Shown here: piece by piece, positions 217 to 39,628 of the stretch | Numbering within the stretch: the stretch's first letter is position 1 | Layout of the letters: every line of letters begins with the position of its first letter | Source: Candidatus Sungiibacteriota bacterium | GTDB taxonomy: Bacteria > Patescibacteriota > Minisyncoccia > Sungbacterales > HO2-52-23 | DNA: 39,628 nucleotides | NCBI GenBank assembly: GCA_016196115.1 | Contig: JACPYI010000022.1 | Coordinates: 1 to 39,628 of the forward strand | Direction of reading: 5' to 3' | Made by a program: the position numbers and the translations under genes | Notes under the pieces: generated by a model | What the model saw: only the letters and a program-made list of their open reading frames with translations | The model's database searches: none | Told to the model about the DNA's origin: nothing

Positions 217-726
217 ATCCAACGACGCTACCGTATCAATCAACTTATCCGCACGACCCCGATCCGAGTCATTGACGACGAGGGCGCGAATCTGGGTGTA
301 ATGGAGACCACGGACGCGCTTCGTATTGCCAACGAACGCGGGCTTGACCTGATCGAGATCGCGCCGACCGCGAAACCGCCCGTGTGCAAGATCATGGACT
401 TCGGCAAGTTCAAGTACGAGCGGGAAAAGGGAGAGCGGGAGCAGGGCAAGAAGCACAAGGACACGAGCGAGGTCAAAGGCGTGCGGATCGGTTTCCTGAC
501 CGGTACGCACGATTTGGAGCTTCGCGCCAAGAACATCAAGAAGTTTCTTGAGGAGGGCCACAAGGTGCGGATAGACATGAAGCTGGTCGGCAGGCAGAAA
601 GCGCACGGGCCGCTGGCGCTTGAGAAATTCAACGCGTTTCTTGAGATGATCCCCGCGGACTTTACCGTAGAGCTTGCGCCCAAGCGTCTTCCGCACGGAT
701 TGCTTGCAGTCATAACAAAAAAGTAG
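217..726 (+). CDS. infC: translation initiation factor IF-3 (non-AUG start)
   Basis: Motifs GLDLIEIAP..PPVCKIMDFGKFKYE. The frame is open upstream of ATG301 through IQRRYRINQLIRTTPIRVIDDEGANLGV back to TAG181. Likely start ATC217 (alternative ATT193). Confidence 0.93.
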   Translation: MQRRYRINQLIRTTPIRVIDDEGANLGVMETTDALRIANERGLDLIEIAPTAKPPVCKIMDFGKFKYEREKGEREQGKKHKDTSEVKGVRIGFLTGTHDLELRAKNIKKFLEEGHKVRIDMKLVGRQKAHGPLALEKFNAFLEMIPADFTVELAPKRLPHGLLAVITKK

Positions 727-14747: not shown

Positions 14748-15873
14748 GAGGGGTCGGGGAGTTTTCACACCCCCAACACAGCTGATTTAACCTCCCATGT
14801 TGACCTTTGTTGTTTCCATGCCGTCCACTGCGCCATCTGTACCGCAATGCCCATGGCGGCAAAAGACCATCGGTTGTTGATATCTCCGCGCATCCAGCAG
14901 CGATCAAGTTCGAAGATATCAGCAACTAATCCCTGCATGGGTTCCACTGTTGTTGAGCGTTCTTTGTAATCTTTCAGGTTTTTCTTGGTGAGCATATCTT
15001 TGATCATCTTTTTTCGTGATTCTGATTTGTCCATGCCTTTGCGGGGAACGGTCACGAGCCGGATCCGATGATTCTTCTTCAGATTCCAATAGAGATGTTG
15101 ATCATCAGCCTTTGAATCCATACACACTTTTCTGACGATTCCCTCATAGACGATGATATCCCGCTCCATCCGTTTTGCTTCGTTTCCTGAATTTGGCATC
15201 CATTGGAATATTCCGACAATCGGTATGGTATGCGGGGTAATGCTGAATGTCCCATGTCCGTACACCCAGCCATCTGCGCGGGATTTTCCCCACGTTGCCT
15301 CCTTATCCAATCCACGCAATCTTCTCGGAACGATACCTTCTTTTTTCTGCTTCTGGTGCCAGACTGGACCTCGCGCTTTGACCATCATCTTGTCTGCCGA
15401 TACCGTCCTAATGGAAGATTGTTCGAGAAAATACCTGAAAAATGAATGCTGCAGGTCTTCGAGATGAATGGCTGATTTTTTTTAAGCGATCTCGGAGTTG
15501 GCGTTCTGAGATCGGCTTCTTGCGGATTCGCCCACCCAGTCCTTCTGTGAATATGTCCCAATACTGGAGCGCTAAACGGTGAATCGCAAGATAATTCTTC
15601 GCTTTTGCTTTCACCGAAAGCACTGCAATGAACATGATGAGCCATTCAGGGTAGTCAAATTCGCTTCCTCTTGTCCCGTTCCGGACAGGGTGAGGGAATT
15701 TGGTTACTTTGAGGAACTTCTTGAAGTAATCACGTGTTTCTTTAATCCATTGTGGGTTGAGCTTGGGAGTTTGTGTATGTTGTTTTGATGCCGTGGTATG
15801 CTTGTTCATGCATCCATGATACCAGAATCAGCATATTTCCTCACTTTTTGTAGGGAAAACTCCCCGACCCCTC
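14748..15873 (-). mobile_element. insertion sequence (IS5/IS4-superfamily-like DDE), 1126 bp
   Basis: Perfect 19-bp terminal IRs GAGGGGTCGGGGAGTTTTC (14748-14766 and 15855-15873) enclosing a transposase; no target duplication. Confidence 0.9.
14765..15809 (-). CDS. DDE transposase split over two frames at an A8 run
   Basis: ORF A 15809-15408. The +1 frame from the A8 run (15476-15483) reads SAIHLEDL..VSADKMMVKARG..DKEATWG..GWVYGHG..CMDSKAD..YKERSTTVEP. Confidence 0.8.
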
Positions 15874-15874
15874 A

Positions 15875-16384
15875 TCCGAACAAGAATTCGATCCGCAAGG
15901 CATCTCGGTCGTCTTCAAGAAAATTCAGCAAGCGGCAGGCATCCAAAAAATAGAGTATCAGCAAAGTTTTAACCGGAATTTATTTTTCCTCCATACCGGC
16001 ACCGATATTATGAAAACAGAATTCACTTATTTTCCCTTTCCCCGCATAGAGCAAAAAGAGAAAATCGGCGAGCTTTTTATAGACAGTTTGATTGATATTG
16101 CGGTCAACAAAATTTTTACCATCTACCAAAAACCTCGTTCGCGTGATTTCATCGATCTCTATTTGATCCTCGTCAATAATACGAATCTTACCATCGATTC
16201 CCTGATCAAGAATGCCCAAATAAAATTTGATACGGTTATCGATCCGGTCCAGCTTGGCGCTCAATATGTGAAAGCGAAAGAACTGAAAGATTACCCCAAA
16301 ATGCTGGAAAAACTTGATGCAGACGTGTGGCAGGGATTTTTCGTCAAGGAGGCGGAGAAGCTTTCAGTTAGGGTATTTAAGTAG
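15875..16384 (+). pseudogene. AbiEii-like nucleotidyltransferase toxin, N-terminus deleted
   Basis: Frame open from the IS end: SEQEFD..KTEFTYFPF..DIAVNKIFTIYQKPRSRDFIDLY; the GGT..SxDxD catalytic segment is absent. Confidence 0.75.
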
Positions 16385-16430
16385 TATTTCAATCATTGCG
16401 TCAAGGACTGCTTTGTGCTATTCTTACGAA

Positions 16431-16811
16431 ATGGAGCGAATCATCGTTGAACAAAAAATTAAGGAGGTTGTGGACAAAATCGTCGCGCAATTTCAGCCGG
16501 AAAAAATTATTCTCTTCGGTTCGTATGCATGGGGCACTCCCCATGAAGATAGCGACGTGGATTTTTTTGTGATAAAGACGACTGTCGTTCCTCGTCGAGA
16601 GCGCAAATACGAATTGCGGCATACGCTTTTCCCCTCACCATTTGCGTTTGATGTTTTGATTTATACCCCCGAAGAACTTCAAAAAAGTATCAATGAAAAT
16701 AGAAACCTTTTTATTGAAGACATACTCAGAAACGGAAAGGTGCTTTATGAGAGGCCTGACGGCGCTTTTGCCGTAGATCTCCCGGCTCGGCCACTGACTG
16801 TCTTATCATGA
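16431..16811 (+). CDS. minimal nucleotidyltransferase (MNT) antitoxin
   Basis: PEKIILFGSYAWG..DSDVDFFVI..DVLIYTPEE. Confidence 0.9.
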   Translation: MERIIVEQKIKEVVDKIVAQFQPEKIILFGSYAWGTPHEDSDVDFFVIKTTVVPRRERKYELRHTLFPSPFAFDVLIYTPEELQKSINENRNLFIEDILRNGKVLYERPDGAFAVDLPARPLTVLS

Positions 16812-33095: not shown

Positions 33096-35051
33096 ATGAA
33101 TCTTCGCGCTCATCTTAAAAAATCGTTAGTCGCGCCGTTCCTCATCGCTCTGATTTGCATAGGATTTGCTTTGCCTTTTTCCGCGCACGCCATCTTGGGT
33201 GTGGGAGATGTAGGTGTAACCGTCACTCTCCCTGGTTCAGTTACTAGCACCGAGACACTTACTAATCCTCAAACTTTTGGCTCAACCACGTGGCTACTTC
33301 GCTACATCGTCAACCCGCTCGCGCGGGCCGCAACGCGGGCTGTGCTTACCTCGCTTACCCAGCAGGTGGTGAATTGGGTTTCGGCAAACGGGGGAAATAA
33401 CGTCGGGTTTGTGGGCAATTTTGAGCAGACCCTTACCAATGAACTTGATAATGAGGCCGGGCAGATTTTGGACCAGTTCAAATACATTGATTTTTGCGGG
33501 GACATCGGGACGTATCTGCGGCTTAATTTGCGCGGGCCTGCGGGCGGGTTTCGCCAGAGGGCCCGATGCACCCTGACCGCGGCCGTAAAAAACGTGCAGA
33601 GTTTTTACGACAACTTCCAAAACGGCGGCTGGGAGACGTTTTTGAAAACCAACGTGGATATCCAGAACAACACGGCCGGCGCCTTTCTCATCGGGTTTGA
33701 CTACAAACTTGCGATGGAATCGCGGCGGAAAGAAGAGTTTGGGCTCAAGTACCAAAAGAGCAGCGTCCTTGGCATTACCATACCCAAAAAAATATCAAGC
33801 ACATGCATACCAACGGACTCCAGAAAAACTTTTGGAAATGACCCGAATCTTGGTAAAAGTTATTCCCGATCAGGCAGCAAGCTCTCCTCAGATGTTACCA
33901 CCAATCAGACCGAATTTGGAAGCGAGAGCTGTCTCAACACCTACGAGGAGCAGACCCCGGGCACGATTATCGAGCAGACCATCAAAGACGCGAATAAGAC
34001 CGGCATTGATTTTGGCATTAGCGCAAAGGATTTTGACGAGGCAATCGGCGCCATTATGACGGCGCTCTTGCAGCGTACCATCAGCTCGGCAGGAGGCATA
34101 TTTGGCAAGGGCTCGCCTGGGCAGGCAAATTATGGGGACCAGCTGTATAGCTACAAAGAGATCGGCCCGTCGCAGGATGCTCTGCGCTCCCGCACTGAGG
34201 CCGGTATTTTCCTTGCCTACGGAGCCACCCAGGCCATTGATGCGTCGGTGCTGGCGCTTCGCGCAGAGATTGCGGCAACCTCAACGCTCTCTGCCGCGCG
34301 CGAAAAAGAACTGAAAGAAAAAACATCTGACCTGCTTGCCAAAAAACAGGTGCTTGCCGCTGCCGAAAGCCGGATTGTTACCACCAAGCAATCATCATTC
34401 AATGCCGTTACCCAGGGTGATATTGCGGCCATTGACGGACGCATCACGCAAAGCATGAACGCTATTGAGCCCATTGCCGCCGAAGTAAAAGCATCGCCAT
34501 ACGCCTCGCCCACCGGAGACATGAAAACCGACGCGCTCAATGATCTCTCCGGCGCCCGCACCGCTGTGGCAAGCACACGACGCCTTGTCGGGCAGGCAAT
34601 TGACGAGATTGACGCGGCGCTTGGATTCTTTGCCGCGGCCAGCACGACTCGTCAAGCCGATATCGCGACCCTCCACAACTATCGCGATACGCTCTTCACG
34701 AGCATACGGGCAACGACGGCCGCCGAGTCCGGGGCGACGCAAAAACTTCTTGCGGAAGACGGCAAACTTCAAAACGAATACAATACGATCCAGAGATTTG
34801 TCACCTCAAGCGAGGCAATCGGGGAGACCGGCACCGCGATCAGTTTGATTTTGGCGGCAAACGAAGTGCGACAAAACGCCGCTACCGCGATCCAAAATAC
34901 CTTTAGTTTTCTCGACAGCATCGTGGGGCAAGCATTGGTAACCCCAGCTCCCCAGAGCCCGTCCACAGCGGCAACACCCGTAACCCCGGAAACGCCCGAA
35001 ACCCCGCCGATCCCGGCACCCATAGAATCAGGAGGCGAGCCCGGAGAATAG
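33096..35051 (+). CDS. large secreted/membrane hypothetical protein
   Basis: Signal peptide ending AHA; TQQVVNWV, NGGWETF, QTPG motifs; helical C-terminus. Confidence 0.75.
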   Translation: MNLRAHLKKSLVAPFLIALICIGFALPFSAHAILGVGDVGVTVTLPGSVTSTETLTNPQTFGSTTWLLRYIVNPLARAATRAVLTSLTQQVVNWVSANGGNNVGFVGNFEQTLTNELDNEAGQILDQFKYIDFCGDIGTYLRLNLRGPAGGFRQRARCTLTAAVKNVQSFYDNFQNGGWETFLKTNVDIQNNTAGAFLIGFDYKLAMESRRKEEFGLKYQKSSVLGITIPKKISSTCIPTDSRKTFGNDPNLGKSYSRSGSKLSSDVTTNQTEFGSESCLNTYEEQTPGTIIEQTIKDANKTGIDFGISAKDFDEAIGAIMTALLQRTISSAGGIFGKGSPGQANYGDQLYSYKEIGPSQDALRSRTEAGIFLAYGATQAIDASVLALRAEIAATSTLSAAREKELKEKTSDLLAKKQVLAAAESRIVTTKQSSFNAVTQGDIAAIDGRITQSMNAIEPIAAEVKASPYASPTGDMKTDALNDLSGARTAVASTRRLVGQAIDEIDAALGFFAAASTTRQADIATLHNYRDTLFTSIRATTAAESGATQKLLAEDGKLQNEYNTIQRFVTSSEAIGETGTAISLILAANEVRQNAATAIQNTFSFLDSIVGQALVTPAPQSPSTAATPVTPETPETPPIPAPIESGGEPGE

Positions 35052-35067
35052 GGTAATACCAAAGATC

Positions 35068-35335
35068 ATGAAAAGAGATTTTGATTGATGGAGCCCAAAA
35101 GCAAAACCGCCCCGTATACAGAGCGGCTTCGCGGTGCATAACCCACCCGACAGATTACCTCCGAACATCACCAGCGGGCTTGGTACGCGGGTATATTTTA
35201 TCCCGGCATGGTCGGGACTCGGCGTCGATCCTTTGAGCACAGTACCATACCACCCAAAGAATCCGAGCTCTGCCCCCGGTTCGGCCAGAAACAAGAGCTT
35301 GTACGAAAAAGCACCACCTACATATGTATCACAAA
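35068..35335 (+). pseudogene. decayed PemK-like cassette remnant
   Basis: MKRDFD*W resembles PemK start MEKAFDAW; TGCCCCCG..TTGTAC..ACCACC at 35271-35318 echoes 36653-36708. Confidence 0.4.
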
Positions 35336-35411
35336 CAAAAAAACCCTACTCTCCCTGCTCCTGATCGCGCTGGTGATCGCGGGGGTTTTCGGCGCGGGGC
35401 AGGAGGTGTTA
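35336..35411 (+). repeat. 76-bp signal-peptide repeat R1
   Basis: Encodes KKTLLSLLLIALVIAGVFGAGQEV; matches 36744-36819. Confidence 0.9.
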
Positions 35412-35428
35412 TCATATATGAGAAAAAC

Positions 35429-35989
35429 ATGACGCAAAAAACGCTCATTCTCAAAGGAGAGGCTGTCGTCTACATTGACTGGGCGAATGTTCACGGCTGG
35501 GAGGGATCACTCAAGTGCAAGATAGATATTGCTCACCTTTTTGCCTATTTGAAAACTTATCCGCAGACGCAGGATATACGGCTTTATTTTGGGAAAGATA
35601 TCCATCCGAAATCCGTAGCATTTCTCCAGCGCGCGCAAGAAATCGGATACACAGTCACCAGTAAAGACGTAAAATATATTCTTGAAGCGGAGATTAGCGG
35701 CCGGAAAGTATATCGCCGCAAATGCGACTTTGATATGGAAATCTGTATTGACGTACACGAGGCGCTGGCTGAAAACATCCGTGCCTTCGTTTTCTTTACC
35801 GGAGATGGCGATTTTGCTCCGTTGTATAAGAAGCTGATCCACTTACATAAACAGGTGATTGTAATCTATTCACCGGGTCATCTTGGCAGGGAGATTTGGG
35901 ATATAAAGAAGGGCGTGTTTAAGATTCAACTCAAGAATCTATTCGATAGAGAAAAATCGTCCCCCCGATTGCTCGAGGGGCGTGATTAG
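35429..35989 (+). CDS. NYN/LabA(DUF88) PIN-fold ribonuclease
   Basis: VYIDWANV, RLYFG, KCDFDMEICID, FTGDGDFAPL; start MTQKTL. Confidence 0.9.
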   Translation: MTQKTLILKGEAVVYIDWANVHGWEGSLKCKIDIAHLFAYLKTYPQTQDIRLYFGKDIHPKSVAFLQRAQEIGYTVTSKDVKYILEAEISGRKVYRRKCDFDMEICIDVHEALAENIRAFVFFTGDGDFAPLYKKLIHLHKQVIVIYSPGHLGREIWDIKKGVFKIQLKNLFDREKSSPRLLEGRD

Positions 35990-35990
35990 T
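35948..35990 (-). ncRNA. candidate antisense hairpin sRNA at NYN 3' end
   Basis: Minus strand AATCACGCCCCTCGA-GCAA-TCGGGGGGACGATTTTT, immediately downstream of the promoter at 35995-36022. Confidence 0.55.
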
Positions 35991-35994
35991 CACC

Positions 35995-36022
35995 AGTGTA
36001 GCAAATTGAAAAAGTATGTCAA
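35995..36022 (-). promoter_or_regulatory. convergent sigma70 promoter facing NYN
   Basis: TTGACA-N16-TACACT with TG extension; no credible minus-strand CDS follows. Confidence 0.7.
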
Positions 36023-36107
36023 GACCTCTGATCAGACATTTATCCCTCACTATTCTTAAACGTACCACCATACAAATGGGTGTGGAACCCAAAAGAATAG
36101 TGTGGGA

Positions 36108-36213
36108 CAAAAAAATCATCCTCTCCCTGCTCCTAATCGCCCGCCTGCGCCAAGGCTTCGGTGGACAAGCACTGGTCATTGCCGGAGTTTTTGGCACGGG
36201 GCATGGGGTGTTT
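36108..36213 (+). repeat. signal-peptide repeat R2 with 30-bp insert
   Basis: KKIILSLLLIA[RLRQGFGGQA]LVIAGVFGTGHGVF. Confidence 0.9.
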
Positions 36214-36247
36214 TGGGCGGAGCGGCGAGTTAGTGTAACATAAGATT

Positions 36248-36640
36248 ATGGAAAAAGCTTTTGACGCGTGGAATACGGAAAAGAAGATGATTCATCAACA
36301 AGAGTTGCCGCCATTTTGCTATCCACGCGAAGTATGGTGGTGTGCGCTTGGAGTAAATGTCGGCGATGAGCAGGATGGAACCGGCAAAAACTTTGACAGA
36401 CCCATTGTTGTCGTGCGCGGATTTAATGAACGTATCTTTTTGGGCATCGCGCTTACCGGCAAAAAGAAAGTGGGGGATTATTACTTTTATCTGGGGAAAA
36501 TCGCTGACAGAGACGCATCTGCTGTCCTCTCTCAAATGCGGCTCATTGACTCGAAACGGCTGGTCAAGAAGATAGCCGTGCTCGATAAAATCACGTTTGA
36601 AAACTTACAAGAAGCTCTTAAAAAAATGCTCTTTGGATAA
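36248..36640 (+). CDS. PemK/MazF-family endoribonuclease toxin
   Basis: EVWWCALGVNVGDEQDG..RPIVVV..IALT..SAVLSQMRLIDSKRLVKKI. Confidence 0.9.
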   Translation: MEKAFDAWNTEKKMIHQQELPPFCYPREVWWCALGVNVGDEQDGTGKNFDRPIVVVRGFNERIFLGIALTGKKKVGDYYFYLGKIADRDASAVLSQMRLIDSKRLVKKIAVLDKITFENLQEALKKMLFG

Positions 36641-36692
36641 TGTAAACTAATTTGCCCCCGCTTGCGCGGGGGCGAGGCCGAAGCCCTTTGTA
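36641..36692 (-). ncRNA. candidate two-hairpin sRNA convergent on pemK
   Basis: Minus strand GGC-TTCG-GCC then GCCCCCGC-GCAA-GCGGGGGC, directly after the promoter at 36698-36727. Confidence 0.6.
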
Positions 36693-36697
36693 CTCCC

Positions 36698-36727
36698 ATC
36701 ATACCACCCTCCCAAAACACATGTCAA
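36698..36727 (-). promoter_or_regulatory. convergent sigma70 promoter facing pemK
   Basis: TTGACA-N18-TATGAT with TG extension; the -35 overlaps ATG36721 of the next gene. Confidence 0.7.
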
Positions 36728-39000
36728 CCCCCCAGACCAAACACAAAAAAATCATCCTCTCCCTGCTCCTGATCGCGCTGGTCATCGCCGGGGTTTTGGG
36801 GCTGGGGCATGGAGTGTTTGCCGCACCAGATCCGCCAGCAGTACAACCGCCCACGACGGGACTTTCAATTCCACCAAACTCATCTTCGTCGATTCTTGGT
36901 GCAATTCTCTGGATTCTTTTGGCCATTCGAACCGTCCTCGCATGGCTCCTATCGTATGCTGGTACTGCTTTAGACGCAATGTTTGTAGCAAATGCCGAGC
37001 TTGTACCTTCTGGCAATTCAACTGTACAAACTGGATGGATTATATTGCGTGACCTCGTAAATGGAATGTTTATTTTAATCGTCCTCTGGATTGCACTTAC
37101 TATTATCCTCGGTATTGAACAATATGGCGGAAAAAAATTACTCGTAAAGGTGTTAGCAGTCGCAATTCTTATTAACTTCAGTTTAGCAATTGTTACTGCA
37201 ATCTTTGCGTTTTCCAATCAGGTTGCGCTCGTTTTTGCAAATAAAATCAGTGGCGGACCGGAAAAAAACGTCGCTGCACTCATTATCAATACAACAAAAG
37301 TATACAGTATTACCAATCAACTCGACGCAGAGGCGCGTGCTAAACTTGAACAAGCAAGAAAGGCATATATATGGTCTGGAAGTAGTTGTGCTTGGGGGGA
37401 TATATGGTGTGCTACCAAGAATATCGGTTCAGCCGCCGTCACCGCTGCAGGATCTGCTTTCAGCACGGTGGTAGGAGCCGAGAAGGCGAATTTTGATCAG
37501 GTAGTTGGTGCCGCCATTGGTATTATCTTTCTCTTGATTATAACATCGGCATTTGTCTATACAGCCGTTGCTCTTGGTATACGCTATGTTGCGGTAATAC
37601 TTGTCTCAATCTTTGCTCCTATCGCTTGTCTTGCACTTGTTTTACCACTTGCATCCGCAAAAAAAGCGTGGGATCAGTGGTCAGAAGCGGTTTTCAAATG
37701 GGCGTTCTTTGCCCCGGCGTTTTATTTCTTACTGTATCTGACGCTTCTTATGGCGGTAGCATTTGATAAGCAACTCAGTCAGGGATCACAGGGAACAACA
37801 GATATTAAAATAGATACGCCACGCATTTTGGCTCTTATGGTAGTTTTGATTATGCTCCATTTCACGGCAAAGTTTGCAAAAGACACATCTGGAAAAGCGG
37901 GTACAATTGTTATGGATACCCTCAAAAAAGGTGCGGGGTTGGCGGTGGGGGTTACGGCTGGGGTGGCGACCGGCGGGACGCTGATGGCGGCGCGTGGGTT
38001 GGCGCGTGGGATGGTGAAGCCGGGGACAAGGCGTGAAAAGTTTACGCGAGGACTGGCCCGATACGCGCCAGGCGGAAGAGCTATTCAACGGGCAGGTGTT
38101 CGATCATTGGAGCAGCAGAAGCAGGATATTGAGGATCGGAAGAAAAACTATGGAAGCTACTCCAACGATCAGATACAAGCTGATTTCCGCGGAACCAATA
38201 TTGATTACACCAGAGAAAATGCTGCCAGATTGGCCATGCTTGCCGAACGCAAGGATGGGTTTAAGGGCATGAACGAGGGCGAGATGAAGCGCGTACAGGC
38301 AGTTCTTTCGCATTACAATATGGGCAGTACGCTTGCCAAGACAAACCCAACCCTTGCAGATGAGAACTCGCTCTCTACCAAGGGACGGCAAGACCTAAAG
38401 GATAACGCCGGAAAGAATGCGATAAATCATAATAATGCCCTGGCGGCAGATCCAATCCGCTACACCGCAGAGAATATGCTATCCGGCGACATAGAAAAGG
38501 TAAACACCAGTGAGATCAAGGAAATGACGACGGACAGTGATAAGGCGAAAGAGGCAAAAGCAAAAGTGCGCGAGGGCTTTGCGCGCAATACCGCGTTTGG
38601 CACGAATCAACTCCGCGATCTTGCAGTCAAAGATATTGAGGCAGCCCAGCAACAGGTTAATCACATGAATAGCACCTATGTAGCACTCAATGCGGAGTTG
38701 GCTACCGAGATGGCAAAAGTCGAGGACCAGAGAGATCAGGCAATGATTGCGCGCACCAATCGCCGCATTGCACAGATAAAGGGAATCGCGGCATATGTCA
38801 ATAATAATCCGGGCGGCAGAATATTAGGACTTACATTAGAAACAGAAATGGCAGATGCCGCGGAACAAGAGCGCCAGCGAGGGCGCAGAGGAGGAAGAGC
38901 GGGTAATCCACAACCTCCAACACCAACTCCACCAACTACTCCCACGCCTACACCCCCCCCCGACAACGCCGTAAACCCTGCGGCGCAATGGACTCGTTAA
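36721..39000 (+). CDS. TrbL/VirB6-like polytopic membrane protein
   Basis: Signal peptide; GWIILRDLVN, AILINFSL, IRYVAVILVSIFAPIA, W..FKWAFFAP; Gly/Ala-rich segment; charged tail. Confidence 0.7.
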   Translation: MSTPQTKHKKIILSLLLIALVIAGVLGLGHGVFAAPDPPAVQPPTTGLSIPPNSSSSILGAILWILLAIRTVLAWLLSYAGTALDAMFVANAELVPSGNSTVQTGWIILRDLVNGMFILIVLWIALTIILGIEQYGGKKLLVKVLAVAILINFSLAIVTAIFAFSNQVALVFANKISGGPEKNVAALIINTTKVYSITNQLDAEARAKLEQARKAYIWSGSSCAWGDIWCATKNIGSAAVTAAGSAFSTVVGAEKANFDQVVGAAIGIIFLLIITSAFVYTAVALGIRYVAVILVSIFAPIACLALVLPLASAKKAWDQWSEAVFKWAFFAPAFYFLLYLTLLMAVAFDKQLSQGSQGTTDIKIDTPRILALMVVLIMLHFTAKFAKDTSGKAGTIVMDTLKKGAGLAVGVTAGVATGGTLMAARGLARGMVKPGTRREKFTRGLARYAPGGRAIQRAGVRSLEQQKQDIEDRKKNYGSYSNDQIQADFRGTNIDYTRENAARLAMLAERKDGFKGMNEGEMKRVQAVLSHYNMGSTLAKTNPTLADENSLSTKGRQDLKDNAGKNAINHNNALAADPIRYTAENMLSGDIEKVNTSEIKEMTTDSDKAKEAKAKVREGFARNTAFGTNQLRDLAVKDIEAAQQQVNHMNSTYVALNAELATEMAKVEDQRDQAMIARTNRRIAQIKGIAAYVNNNPGGRILGLTLETEMADAAEQERQRGRRGGRAGNPQPPTPTPPTTPTPTPPPDNAVNPAAQWTR
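36744..36819 (+). repeat. signal-peptide repeat R3 (inside the live gene)
   Basis: KKIILSLLLIALVIAGVLGLGHGVF. Confidence 0.9.
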
Positions 39001-39060: not shown

Positions 39061-39628
39061 ATGATGAAGGAACACATGGCCATTCGTATGAAACCTACCC
39101 TCGCAGTGTATCATACCTTGAAGGAAAAAGTAACCTTTCTGTACCATAAGCCGAAACTGTTCATGCATGAGAATACCACTGGTCGAAAACTGTCATTGCC
39201 CATCATCGAGACCATTACCCTTGCCCTGTACAAACAGACCCAGCACATTCAAACCAAGAAAGCGATCCGGAATGACTTCCAGCCATCCTGTTCCTAATCA
39301 TGTCTGACCTTGCCGCATGGGGACACTCGGGAAAAGGGCATTACTACGGGCTGAAACTGCATCTCACGTCTGATCTGAATAGACAATTACTCGCCATTAG
39401 ATTCAGTCCCGCCAATACCCACGGCACCAAGGTATTCAGGAAGCTGAACGATGATCTGGACGGCATCTTTGTGGCTGATGGGGAGTATGTCTCCGAGAAG
39501 CTGGAACGGGAGTTCTATGTTGAACACAAACGAATCTTGTTTGCCCGACCCCGCAAGAACATGGGTAAACTCATCACCGCATTCCAGTATCATCTCTACA
39601 ATACCCGTATGCTCATTGAACCGAACTT
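39061..39628 (+). pseudogene. IS982-like DDE transposase remnant (runs off window)
   Basis: TGRKLSL..TITLALYK (39061-39297); from 39300 AAWGHSGKGHYYGLKLHL..FVADGEY..PRKNM..RMLIE; first catalytic-Asp region appears missing. Confidence 0.75.

Follow-up and report, generated by a model that had tools for sequence, protein, structure and literature searches.

The 39.6-kb contig JACPYI010000022.1 of the tiny groundwater organism Candidatus Sungiibacteriota bacterium (39,628 nucleotides (nt); hereafter the window) contains, between a conserved gene for a protein of 651 amino acids (aa) and a gene for a VirB6-like membrane protein of 759 aa, a tandem array of toxin-type genes delimited by three copies of the start of the membrane gene. 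Based on comparisons with the same site in related genomes, we propose that the junction of the two genes, located in a chromosomal type IV secretion system (T4SS) cluster, is probably a hot spot for cassettes, each combining a toxin gene and a predicted small-RNA gene with a replacement start for the secretion gene. What is observed are the repeats, a cassette number, order and content that vary among genomes, an empty ancestral state of the site, a similarity of cassettes between species that exceeds that of their flanks, the decay of stranded gene starts (here called orphans), and a conserved promoter-hairpin module.

The window is one entire contig of an 842-kb, 39-contig genome, labelled G000 here. 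G001, G002 and G003 are other members of its genus, G033 belongs to a different genus, and the family is represented in the collection by 36 genomes in all. The array of the G001 lineage was read from the G001 contig and metagenome contigs joined at overlap identities of 99.9% and 100%. A degenerate 29-nt pattern of the repeat matched only G001-G003 among the genome contigs and four short contigs among the metagenome contigs, which were used as well.

Three copies of a gene start

The repeat unit corresponds to the first ~33 codons of the 759-aa gene (36721-39000, plus strand) and is present at 35324-35411, 36016-36213 and 36721-36819. An earlier note, made from the letters of this DNA alone, had described a 76-bp segment occurring in three places; the three copies were recovered, but the unit proved to be longer, to begin at an ATG (35324, 36016 and 36721) and to be interrupted in copy 2 by an insertion of ~70 nt. 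In a repeat search the unit appeared as families of 34 nt (35335, 36107 and 36743; 88-100% identity) and 45 nt (35367, 36169 and 36775; 78-100%) and as a pair of 81 nt (35330-35410 and 36738-36818; 83%), and MAFFT alignment showed that copy 2 is this unit too, with 30 nt inserted in frame. The three copies score E values of 5e-26, 9e-22 and 7e-27 against an nhmmer profile, and a search of the whole 842-kb genome returned no further copy besides two chance matches with E = 1.16, i.e. the repeat is not a dispersed element. A look-alike at 33115 (62%), where the 651-aa gene encodes its hydrophobic signal peptide, was dismissed as a chance match (E 0.12).

Only copy 3 continues as the membrane gene, as previously noted, its 99 nt forming the live start and signal peptide of the 759-aa open reading frame (ORF) from ATG 36721. 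Copies 1 and 2, both on the plus strand, are orphans. Copy 1 is 82% identical to copy 3 and has its ATG out of frame with the signal-peptide reading (KK.LLSLLL). The insertion of ~70 nt in copy 2 (36030-36105) is a hairpin with 30-nt inverted arms and a fold z of -3.95 against shuffles, and may be a small element resembling miniature inverted-repeat transposable elements. The 30-nt in-frame insertion (36141-36170) is shared with a G002 orphan (L027, about 600-700, minus strand), the encoded peptides being RLRQGFGGQA and RLRQGFGEQA, and the orphan allele is therefore common to both species. Orphans of G002 also contain a palindromic CCTGCCTGC...GCAGGCAGG insertion.

Over the 25 codons compared, copies 2 and 3 are separated by six synonymous and three non-synonymous changes, copies 1 and 3 by five and eight, and copies 1 and 2 by eight and six, giving ratios of non-synonymous to synonymous differences per site (pN/pS) of 0.20, 0.66 and 0.30, respectively. 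The synonymous bias among the copies pointed out earlier is thus present, on 25 codons only, and fits weakly with a divergence that would have occurred while each copy was a live start. The orphans are damaged in many different ways, by a frameshifted ATG (copy 1) and by hairpin and 30-nt insertions (copy 2) in G000, by a stop codon and palindromic or hairpin insertions in G002, by loss of one ATG in the G001 lineage and by deletion of one half in G003, and hence represent relics as coding sequence.

Cassette genes

Between consecutive copies lies one gene of a ribonuclease (RNase) family, as the earlier note had it, and both genes exceed their Pfam cut-offs. The first (35429-35989, plus strand) encodes a 186-aa protein with an NYN domain, a PIN-like RNase (PF01936, E 1.5e-14, 55.2 bits against a cut-off of 24.2), and the second (36248-36640, plus strand) a 130-aa member of the PemK/MazF family (PF02452, E 3.9e-10, 40.4 bits against 23.1) that also matches the MazF-like phrog_9567 (E 2.9e-15). 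Both -10-like hexamers assigned to these genes are in place, TATCAT at 35410 and TAACAT at 36236, the latter 7 nt ahead of the PemK ATG, a spacing that would fit a leaderless mRNA. The toxins of the window are soluble RNase-family proteins of 130-186 aa, not small hydrophobic peptides. No ORF for a protein antitoxin was found beside the window PemK, neither between the orphan repeat and PemK nor from PemK to the next repeat; in contrast, a classical MazF on contig C10 of G000 has a 92-aa candidate partner ORF upstream that overlaps its start.

The stretch ahead of copy 1 (35052-35323, plus strand) is most simply explained as a third, decayed cassette. Its first ~40 nt align with the PemK leaders and starts of four loci, including an ATG at 35068 that is followed by a stop at codon 7, and the subsequent 230 nt are without detectable relatives. 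Among all sequences fetched, 35052-35335 gave no blastn or tblastx match beyond this PemK-like beginning, and no strict convergent promoter remains in 35052-35323.

Empty sites and variable arrays in relatives

A match to the VirB6-like protein was found in 49 of 61 related genomes, and the gene order TSP3-repeat gene, 651-aa gene, VirB6-like gene is maintained in 22 of the 22 loci with both of the latter genes on one stretch. No gene separates the 651-aa and VirB6-like genes in 19 of these, where the distance from the 651-aa stop to the projected VirB6-like start ranges between -45 and about 320 nt; neither a cassette gene nor a repeated start lies in the 263-318 nt that separate the two genes in G021, G016 and G022. 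Two candidates were set aside. A 799-nt gap in G005 is not an insertion, as its 251-aa ORF lies in an N-containing stretch and seems to be the terminal part of the 651-aa gene, and a PemK gene in G034, joined to the middle of the VirB6-like gene solely across a 100-N gap, was not used.

The arrangement is accordingly not fixed, with one cassette in G003, two and a relic in G000, three in G002, at least five and a relic in the G001 lineage, and one in G033. The order is relic, NYN and PemK in G000, and half an orphan followed by a single PemK in G003. In G002, the 651-aa gene is succeeded by an orphan, PemK-a, an orphan, a truncated PemK-b, an orphan and PemK-c, with the contig breaking inside a fourth repeat copy, and the G001 array, the contig of which ends in the repeat, comprises a PemK-a relic, a gene for a 136-aa protein, an NYN gene with an internal deletion of ~330 nt, PemK157, PemK-y and a further NYN gene. 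In G033 a different start, that of its own gene, is duplicated (87 nt, 90.8%) around a PemK gene. Cassette content thus includes several PemK types, NYN and the 136-aa protein, all cassettes observed are co-oriented with the operon, and the same build recurs in four genomes of the genus, one of another genus and four metagenome contigs. This PemK type was found in 16 of the 36 family genomes and in 0 of 25 genomes of other families in the order.

In G002, G001 and G003 an orphan lies 7, 13 and 3 nt past the 651-aa stop, respectively. For G002 and G001 this is where the live start stands in cassette-free relatives, which fits with old starts having been left behind and supports the earlier proposal that cassettes are repeatedly added at the 5' end of the gene. 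These native orphans are themselves altered: a deletion has joined that of G001 to the final 78 nt of PemK-a, that of G003 retains the 3' half only, and that of G002 is the most diverged copy, with 68-79% identity to all others.

Additional features were noted at two of these sites. A variant of the G001 contig (97% identical; L054, 247-1062) contains a 271-aa gene with a weak integrase-core (rve_3) match upstream of an intact PemK-a, where G001 itself has the 651-aa gene and the PemK-a relic. In G033, ARAGORN predicts a tRNA-Asp whose anticodon, ATC, is unusual (L035, 2053-2123, plus strand), on the strand opposite to the operon and between the 651-aa gene and the orphan start, and a toxin-less relic of the promoter-terminator module described below lies beside it.

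The 136-aa protein of the G001 lineage has 482 unnamed homologues and no match in Pfam, NCBIfam, PADLOC or PHROGs. Its AlphaFold2 model (predicted local distance difference test score 93.9) retrieved nothing at E <= 0.001 from the Protein Data Bank (PDB) using Foldseek, RelE being best at 0.12. A wide VIA-align search placed RelE/ParE/YoeB/YafQ/BrnT/CdiA-CT toxins, or toxin-antitoxin complexes, in 15 of its top 25 rows, with Z scores of only 5.2-3.3 over residues 46-136, and the Atlas likewise suggests LPD3/PBECR2/MqsR. The model comparisons provide a lead, rather than a finding, that the protein may have a RelE-like RNase fold.

A predicted convergent small-RNA gene

The convergent promoters that the earlier note had assigned to the RNase genes are real as motifs. 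In a promoter scan, the PemK cassette was found to carry TTGACA-N18-TATGAT on the minus strand (11/12 consensus matches) and the NYN cassette TTGACA-N16-TACACT (10/12). The predicted small-RNA gene of the NYN cassette (35945-36022, minus strand) has its -35 box TTGACA at 36022-36017, its -10 box TACACT at 36000-35995 and a hairpin at 35980-35961 with a U-run, and overlaps the final NYN codons; the motif is kept in the copy in L055. The corresponding candidate of the PemK cassette (36640-36727, minus strand; fold z -3.83) comprises TTGACA at 36727-36722 and TATGAT at 36703-36698, together with a mini-hairpin (GGC-UUCG-GCC) and, at 36673-36654, a GC hairpin of 8 bp. The -35 box is the reverse complement of ATGTCAA at the repeat start.

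TTGACA-N16-18-TAnnnT is found on the minus strand downstream of every cassette in every array, and in G033 it lies in non-coding sequence, 27 nt upstream of the real start. It also follows four of six other solitary PemK/NYN genes of G000, where 90 strict motifs in 2 x 842 kb correspond to an expectation of about 0.01 per 200-nt window. Elsewhere in the family, the strict motif follows 8 of 16 PemK loci and a TTGACT variant three more; among the other five, three are truncated at a contig end or by Ns, one has its module beyond the 200-nt window and one has the -10 box at the stop codon. When the strict promoter is combined with a structural filter, three sites remain in G000, two of them adjoining PemK genes and the third at about 3415 of contig C11 (plus strand).

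The spacers vary among the units, while the hexamers are constant. Past the -10 box follows a mini-hairpin of 3-5 bp, often with a UUCG loop, and then a GC hairpin of 7-11 bp with varying sequence, and, in many units, a U-run complementary to the toxin TAA and the A-run behind it. The mini-hairpin stems differ by paired changes (GGC/GCC, GCC/GGC, GGGA/UCCC and CGAC/GUCG), a covariation taken from a listing of stems, as MAFFT alignment of 19 candidates aligned the mini-hairpin and not the main hairpin. Mini-hairpin and hairpin are both present in the minimum-energy structure of 14 of 18 candidates, and 13 of 18 have z <= -2. We therefore predict from these sequence features that the module is an antisense RNA gene of ~50 nt that belongs to the toxin module.

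PemK modules are also found in other surroundings. Contig C44 of G012 (L088, 1501-2451) has two tandem PemK genes, each with a convergent module and with no repeated gene start between them. In L074, L078 and L091 (G009, G004 and G018), a PemK module is followed by a gene of ~390-440 aa with an N-terminal Cys-rich motif and a PD-(D/E)XK domain (E 4e-6), the start codon of which is the ATG inside a ATGTCAAG box, as for the VirB6-like gene in the window.

Cassette mobility and recombination

The NYN cassettes of G000 and the G001 lineage are 80-85% identical in nucleotides and 79% in amino acids, whereas nucleotide identity in the flanks is 63% for the 651-aa gene and 61% for the TSP3 gene (57% in amino acids). 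As cassettes are more alike between the species than their flanks, we conclude that they move. Within one array, PemK paralogues are 33-50% identical, no closer to each other than to PemK at other loci; across genomes, the pairs G002-a/G001-a and G002-b/G001-y reach 73% and 76%. NYN has a different left neighbour in every array that contains it. The two NYN copies of the G001 array are 98% alike across their first 39 codons, and PemK type a stands first in both the G002 and G001 arrays.

Between G000 and G003, the repeat is the best-conserved part of the VirB6-like gene, with 88% and 77% identity in two 60-nt windows, followed by 42-47% (52% overall). The repeat copies have genome-specific middle parts, and one G001 copy is 96% like the live start of G000. 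This mosaicism, in conjunction with the strict co-orientation of the cassettes, would favour homologous recombination on the repeated start. No Phage_integrase match was obtained among the 40 window ORFs scanned, and no recombinase lies beside the arrays of G001-G003 or G033. The sole PF00589 (tyrosine recombinase) match in the G000 genome is on contig C22 and is most readily explained as the housekeeping Xer. A scan of 34900-36900 against Rfam gave nothing at E <= 1, the repeat has no palindromic core, and by inspection the cassette 3' ends form short perfect GC hairpins with loops of 4-5 nt, without GTTRRRY boxes.

Proposed mechanism and alternatives

We propose that a cassette of ~0.6-0.8 kb would consist of one RNase-type toxin gene (PemK/MazF, NYN or the 136-aa protein), preceded by a short leader that includes a -10-like box and followed by a convergent small-RNA gene, in which a sigma-70-type promoter and a mini-hairpin are joined by a terminator hairpin abutting the toxin stop codon, and finally by a replacement VirB6-like start, from the ATG through the signal peptide. 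Upon insertion, the incoming copy would become the live start, and the previous one would be stranded upstream as an orphan and decay. Since each cassette brings a spare start, insertion would never break the secretion gene. Units would be gained, swapped and lost by homologous recombination, with the repeated start serving as portable homology. In the uptake route, DNA with the order repeat, cassette, repeat, VirB6-like gene would pair through its first repeat with any resident copy and with the gene body opposite, resulting in one added cassette and a new live start; alternatively, unequal crossing-over would duplicate or delete units. The small RNA would then serve as a type I-like antisense antitoxin or as a repressor of the toxin.

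Site-specific recombination, with the gene start as attachment site and circular cassettes moved by a recombinase encoded elsewhere in an integron-like or Xer-exploiting manner, appears rather unlikely to us. It would account for the right border of the repeat, the position of which spans about 10 nt across all cassettes, with GGGGTG at the end both in the genus of G000 (g1) and in G033, for a repeat far more conserved than the remaining VirB6-like gene, and for uniformly built single-gene cassettes as in integrons, and the genome does encode one tyrosine recombinase. However, that gene is on another contig, with no recombinase in the window or adjoining any array, and neither a palindromic core nor GTTRRRY-type boxes nor an Rfam match was found, as detailed above; moreover, the borders vary by a few nt among cassettes, and the copies are mosaics with genome-specific middles. 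Purely local evolution, in which an ancient insertion was duplicated in tandem by unequal crossing-over and diverged, with no movement between genomes, we regard as improbable. Direct repeats do promote unequal crossing-over, and the row of three PemK genes in G002, the near-identical beginnings of the NYN copies in G001 and the shared first position of PemK type a would be explained in this way. Nevertheless, the arrays combine three unrelated protein families, PemK genes within an array are as distant as those at other loci, NYN cassettes are far closer between species than their flanks, the G001 copy that is 96% identical to the live start of G000 has neighbours with the G001 signature, and G033 has duplicated its own, different start.

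It is very improbable that the orphan starts are functional, either as small signal-peptide-like ORFs coupled to toxin translation or as membrane peptides acting with the toxin, even if pN/pS among the copies is below 1 and the frames are suggestively placed, with the orphan frame ending 4 nt before the PemK ATG in G000 (36241-36250) and likewise in G003, and overlapping the NYN start as ATGA (35429-35432). Copy 1 has no in-frame start nearby, copy 2 is split by two insertions, and the orphans of G002, G003 and the G001 lineage have suffered the stop codon, the hairpin insertions, the half deletion and the ATG loss described above. In addition, the PemK leader is found with equal spacing at loci having no orphan, and the spacing thus belongs to the PemK module. 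An assembly artefact or strain chimera is hardly credible. The genomes are metagenome-assembled, and in G001 and G002 contigs end within the repeat; yet an independent 16.8-kb Logan contig, possibly from the same source sample, spans 34500-37500 without any difference, pieces from a third sequencing run bridge every repeat border in a comparison of contigs of four runs, and the build recurs in the genomes and metagenome contigs listed above. Mis-assembly, which the earlier note had named as a concern, has therefore left no sign.

Several points weigh against recombination on the repeated start as the driver, and against the proposed role of the RNA. Stronger constraint instead of transfer could partly account for the high identity of cassettes across species, and the tight right border (about 10 nt, GGGGTG in both genera) also fits a site-specific cut. 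With homology arms of 80-180 bp that are 80-90% identical, the substrates are poor ones for RecA, and the model does not account for the first start duplication. The contigs of the four runs contain no excision, deletion or circle joint, although, being contigs only, they are silent on whether excision occurs; the only joint found (36363 to 36666, with 295 other letters between and 20-nt sides) resembles another PemK locus rather than a junction. Direct repeats are absent from the flanks of solitary PemK genes in G000 (contigs C19 and C39) and of the tandem PemK pair in G012, from which it follows that the module itself does not create the duplication. Regarding the RNA, 4 of 18 candidates do not fold as modelled at minimum energy, some units are without a U-rich tail, promoter and terminator are consensus matches only, and a function as antisense antitoxin or toxin repressor in the type I manner is purely conjectural, drawn from the layout.

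Host operon and neighbouring genes

The 651-aa gene (33096-35051, plus strand), which directly precedes the VirB6-like gene in cassette-free relatives, matches no Pfam family. The same holds for the 759-aa protein, the translation of which has multiple hydrophobic stretches, as expected of a polytopic membrane protein; none of 13 homologues scores above a Pfam cut-off, one of 12 relatives coming to 23.5 bits against the 25.9 required for PF04610 (TrbL). In its nearest Atlas clusters TrbL_3 is found in 16-21% of members, and the top PDB match of a 13-sequence family profile is TrwI, a VirB6 homologue (7o3v_F), at an E value of only 0.021. In G003, three genes lie downstream in the same direction, namely those for PrgI (E 2.6e-6), for a VirB4-like ATPase (E 9e-25, TraG P-loop) and for a T4SS pilin (E 1.4e-15), and dnaA is near the cluster. 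This layout agrees with that of Patescibacteria T4SS clusters as described in PMC12102498. The VirB6-like label of the earlier note is hence supported by T4SS gene context, but the family profile threshold is not reached, and we call the gene VirB6-like (or VirB6/TrbL-like) by position, because the context is stronger than the marginal profile evidence.

Elsewhere in the window, fragments of DDE transposase genes are present at 39300-39626, just downstream of the VirB6-like gene and cut by the contig end, and at 14768-15388. Overlapping ORFs at 16010-16808, with an AbiEii match below the cut-off (E 1.5e-4, 22.2 against 22.5 bits) and nucleotidyltransferase (Polbeta / NTP_transf_2) matches, may represent another toxin-antitoxin-type pair.

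Discussion

Our literature search returned no description of this array or of a PemK gene with a convergent small RNA, a preprint that had come into question (PMC13278184) proved to be unrelated, and the locus is best considered in relation to several known systems. Sedentary chromosomal integrons carry toxin-antitoxin cassettes. Integron arrays (cf. PMC12614218) resemble the present array in their tandem, co-oriented single-gene cassettes with a recurring element, in the variation of number, order and content, and in the presence of toxin-type genes. The integron-like accretion without a visible integrase suggested earlier is apt for the form of the array only. No IntI or attI was found here, and inspection gave no attC-like imperfect palindrome. 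Moreover, what recurs between the cassettes is the 5' coding end of a gene resident at the site, every cassette is equipped with a promoter-like leader and a convergent RNA gene, and the array is probably driven by homologous recombination.

In Rhs and CdiA C-terminal displacement (cf. PMC2935791), modules enter by recombination in a conserved piece of the main gene, and displaced ones persist as orphans behind a fragment of it, with arrays of toxin genes as the result. The window presents a mirror image, in that the 5' start is repeated and orphans accumulate upstream, and differs in having separate cassette genes, no immunity genes and a main gene that encodes a secretion-channel component rather than a toxin. 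By analogy, this displacement, mirrored to the 5' end, would be the nearest relative in logic, with replacement-end prophages also close. Phage 21 and e14 in icd, and islands in tRNA genes, bring a diverged copy of a gene segment, such that the gene stays intact and a pseudo-copy, rich in synonymous differences, is left next to it. Such replacement-end prophages and islands are large, encode their own integrase and usually replace the 3' end, whereas the units here are of 0.6-0.8 kb, lack an integrase, replace the 5' end and are stacked repeatedly. The minimal mobile elements of Neisseria are similar in that uptake and homologous recombination swap content between conserved flanks without mobility genes, yet they replace each other at the site (cf. 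PMC3787668), with no accretion of duplicated gene starts.

The predicted RNA is reminiscent of type I toxin-antitoxin systems in its complementarity to the 3' end of the toxin mRNA and in the shared hairpin terminator. In the Bacillus pairs txpA/RatA and bsrG/SR4, toxin gene and small RNA are likewise convergent, overlap at their 3' ends and share a terminator hairpin. Known type I toxins are, however, mostly small hydrophobic peptides, while those here are PemK/MazF, NYN and RelE-like RNases, with a predicted overlap of about 20-50 nt only. RNases of these families are normally paired with protein antitoxins, or with type III RNAs in the case of ToxN-like folds.

Taken further, the site may be a new kind of gene-capture platform of the ultra-small bacteria of the candidate phyla radiation (CPR) that operates by 'N-terminal displacement', with the start codon and signal peptide of an essential T4SS gene as a portable site for attachment and homology in place of an integrase and with a new start supplied by every captured unit, and the MazF-, NYN- and RelE-like toxins may be held by a convergent two-hairpin antisense RNA of ~50 nt, constituting an undescribed toxin-antitoxin class. 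We put this wider interpretation forward tentatively, as a possibility that falls short of being probable.

CPR bacteria, or Patescibacteria, have tiny genomes with few recognisable mobile elements, and their gain and loss of accessory genes is poorly known. The locus described here represents a concrete route for accessory genes, in which toxin modules accrete in a secretion operon with no visible recombinase and with the gene left unbroken. If the pairing of 'solitary' PemK and NYN genes with a convergent small RNA is family-wide, it would explain their missing protein antitoxins. According to PMC12102498, the secretion operon is essential for epibiotic growth in one tested relative. If the toxins are addiction or defence genes, we speculate that their location could contribute to the retention of the secretion cluster.

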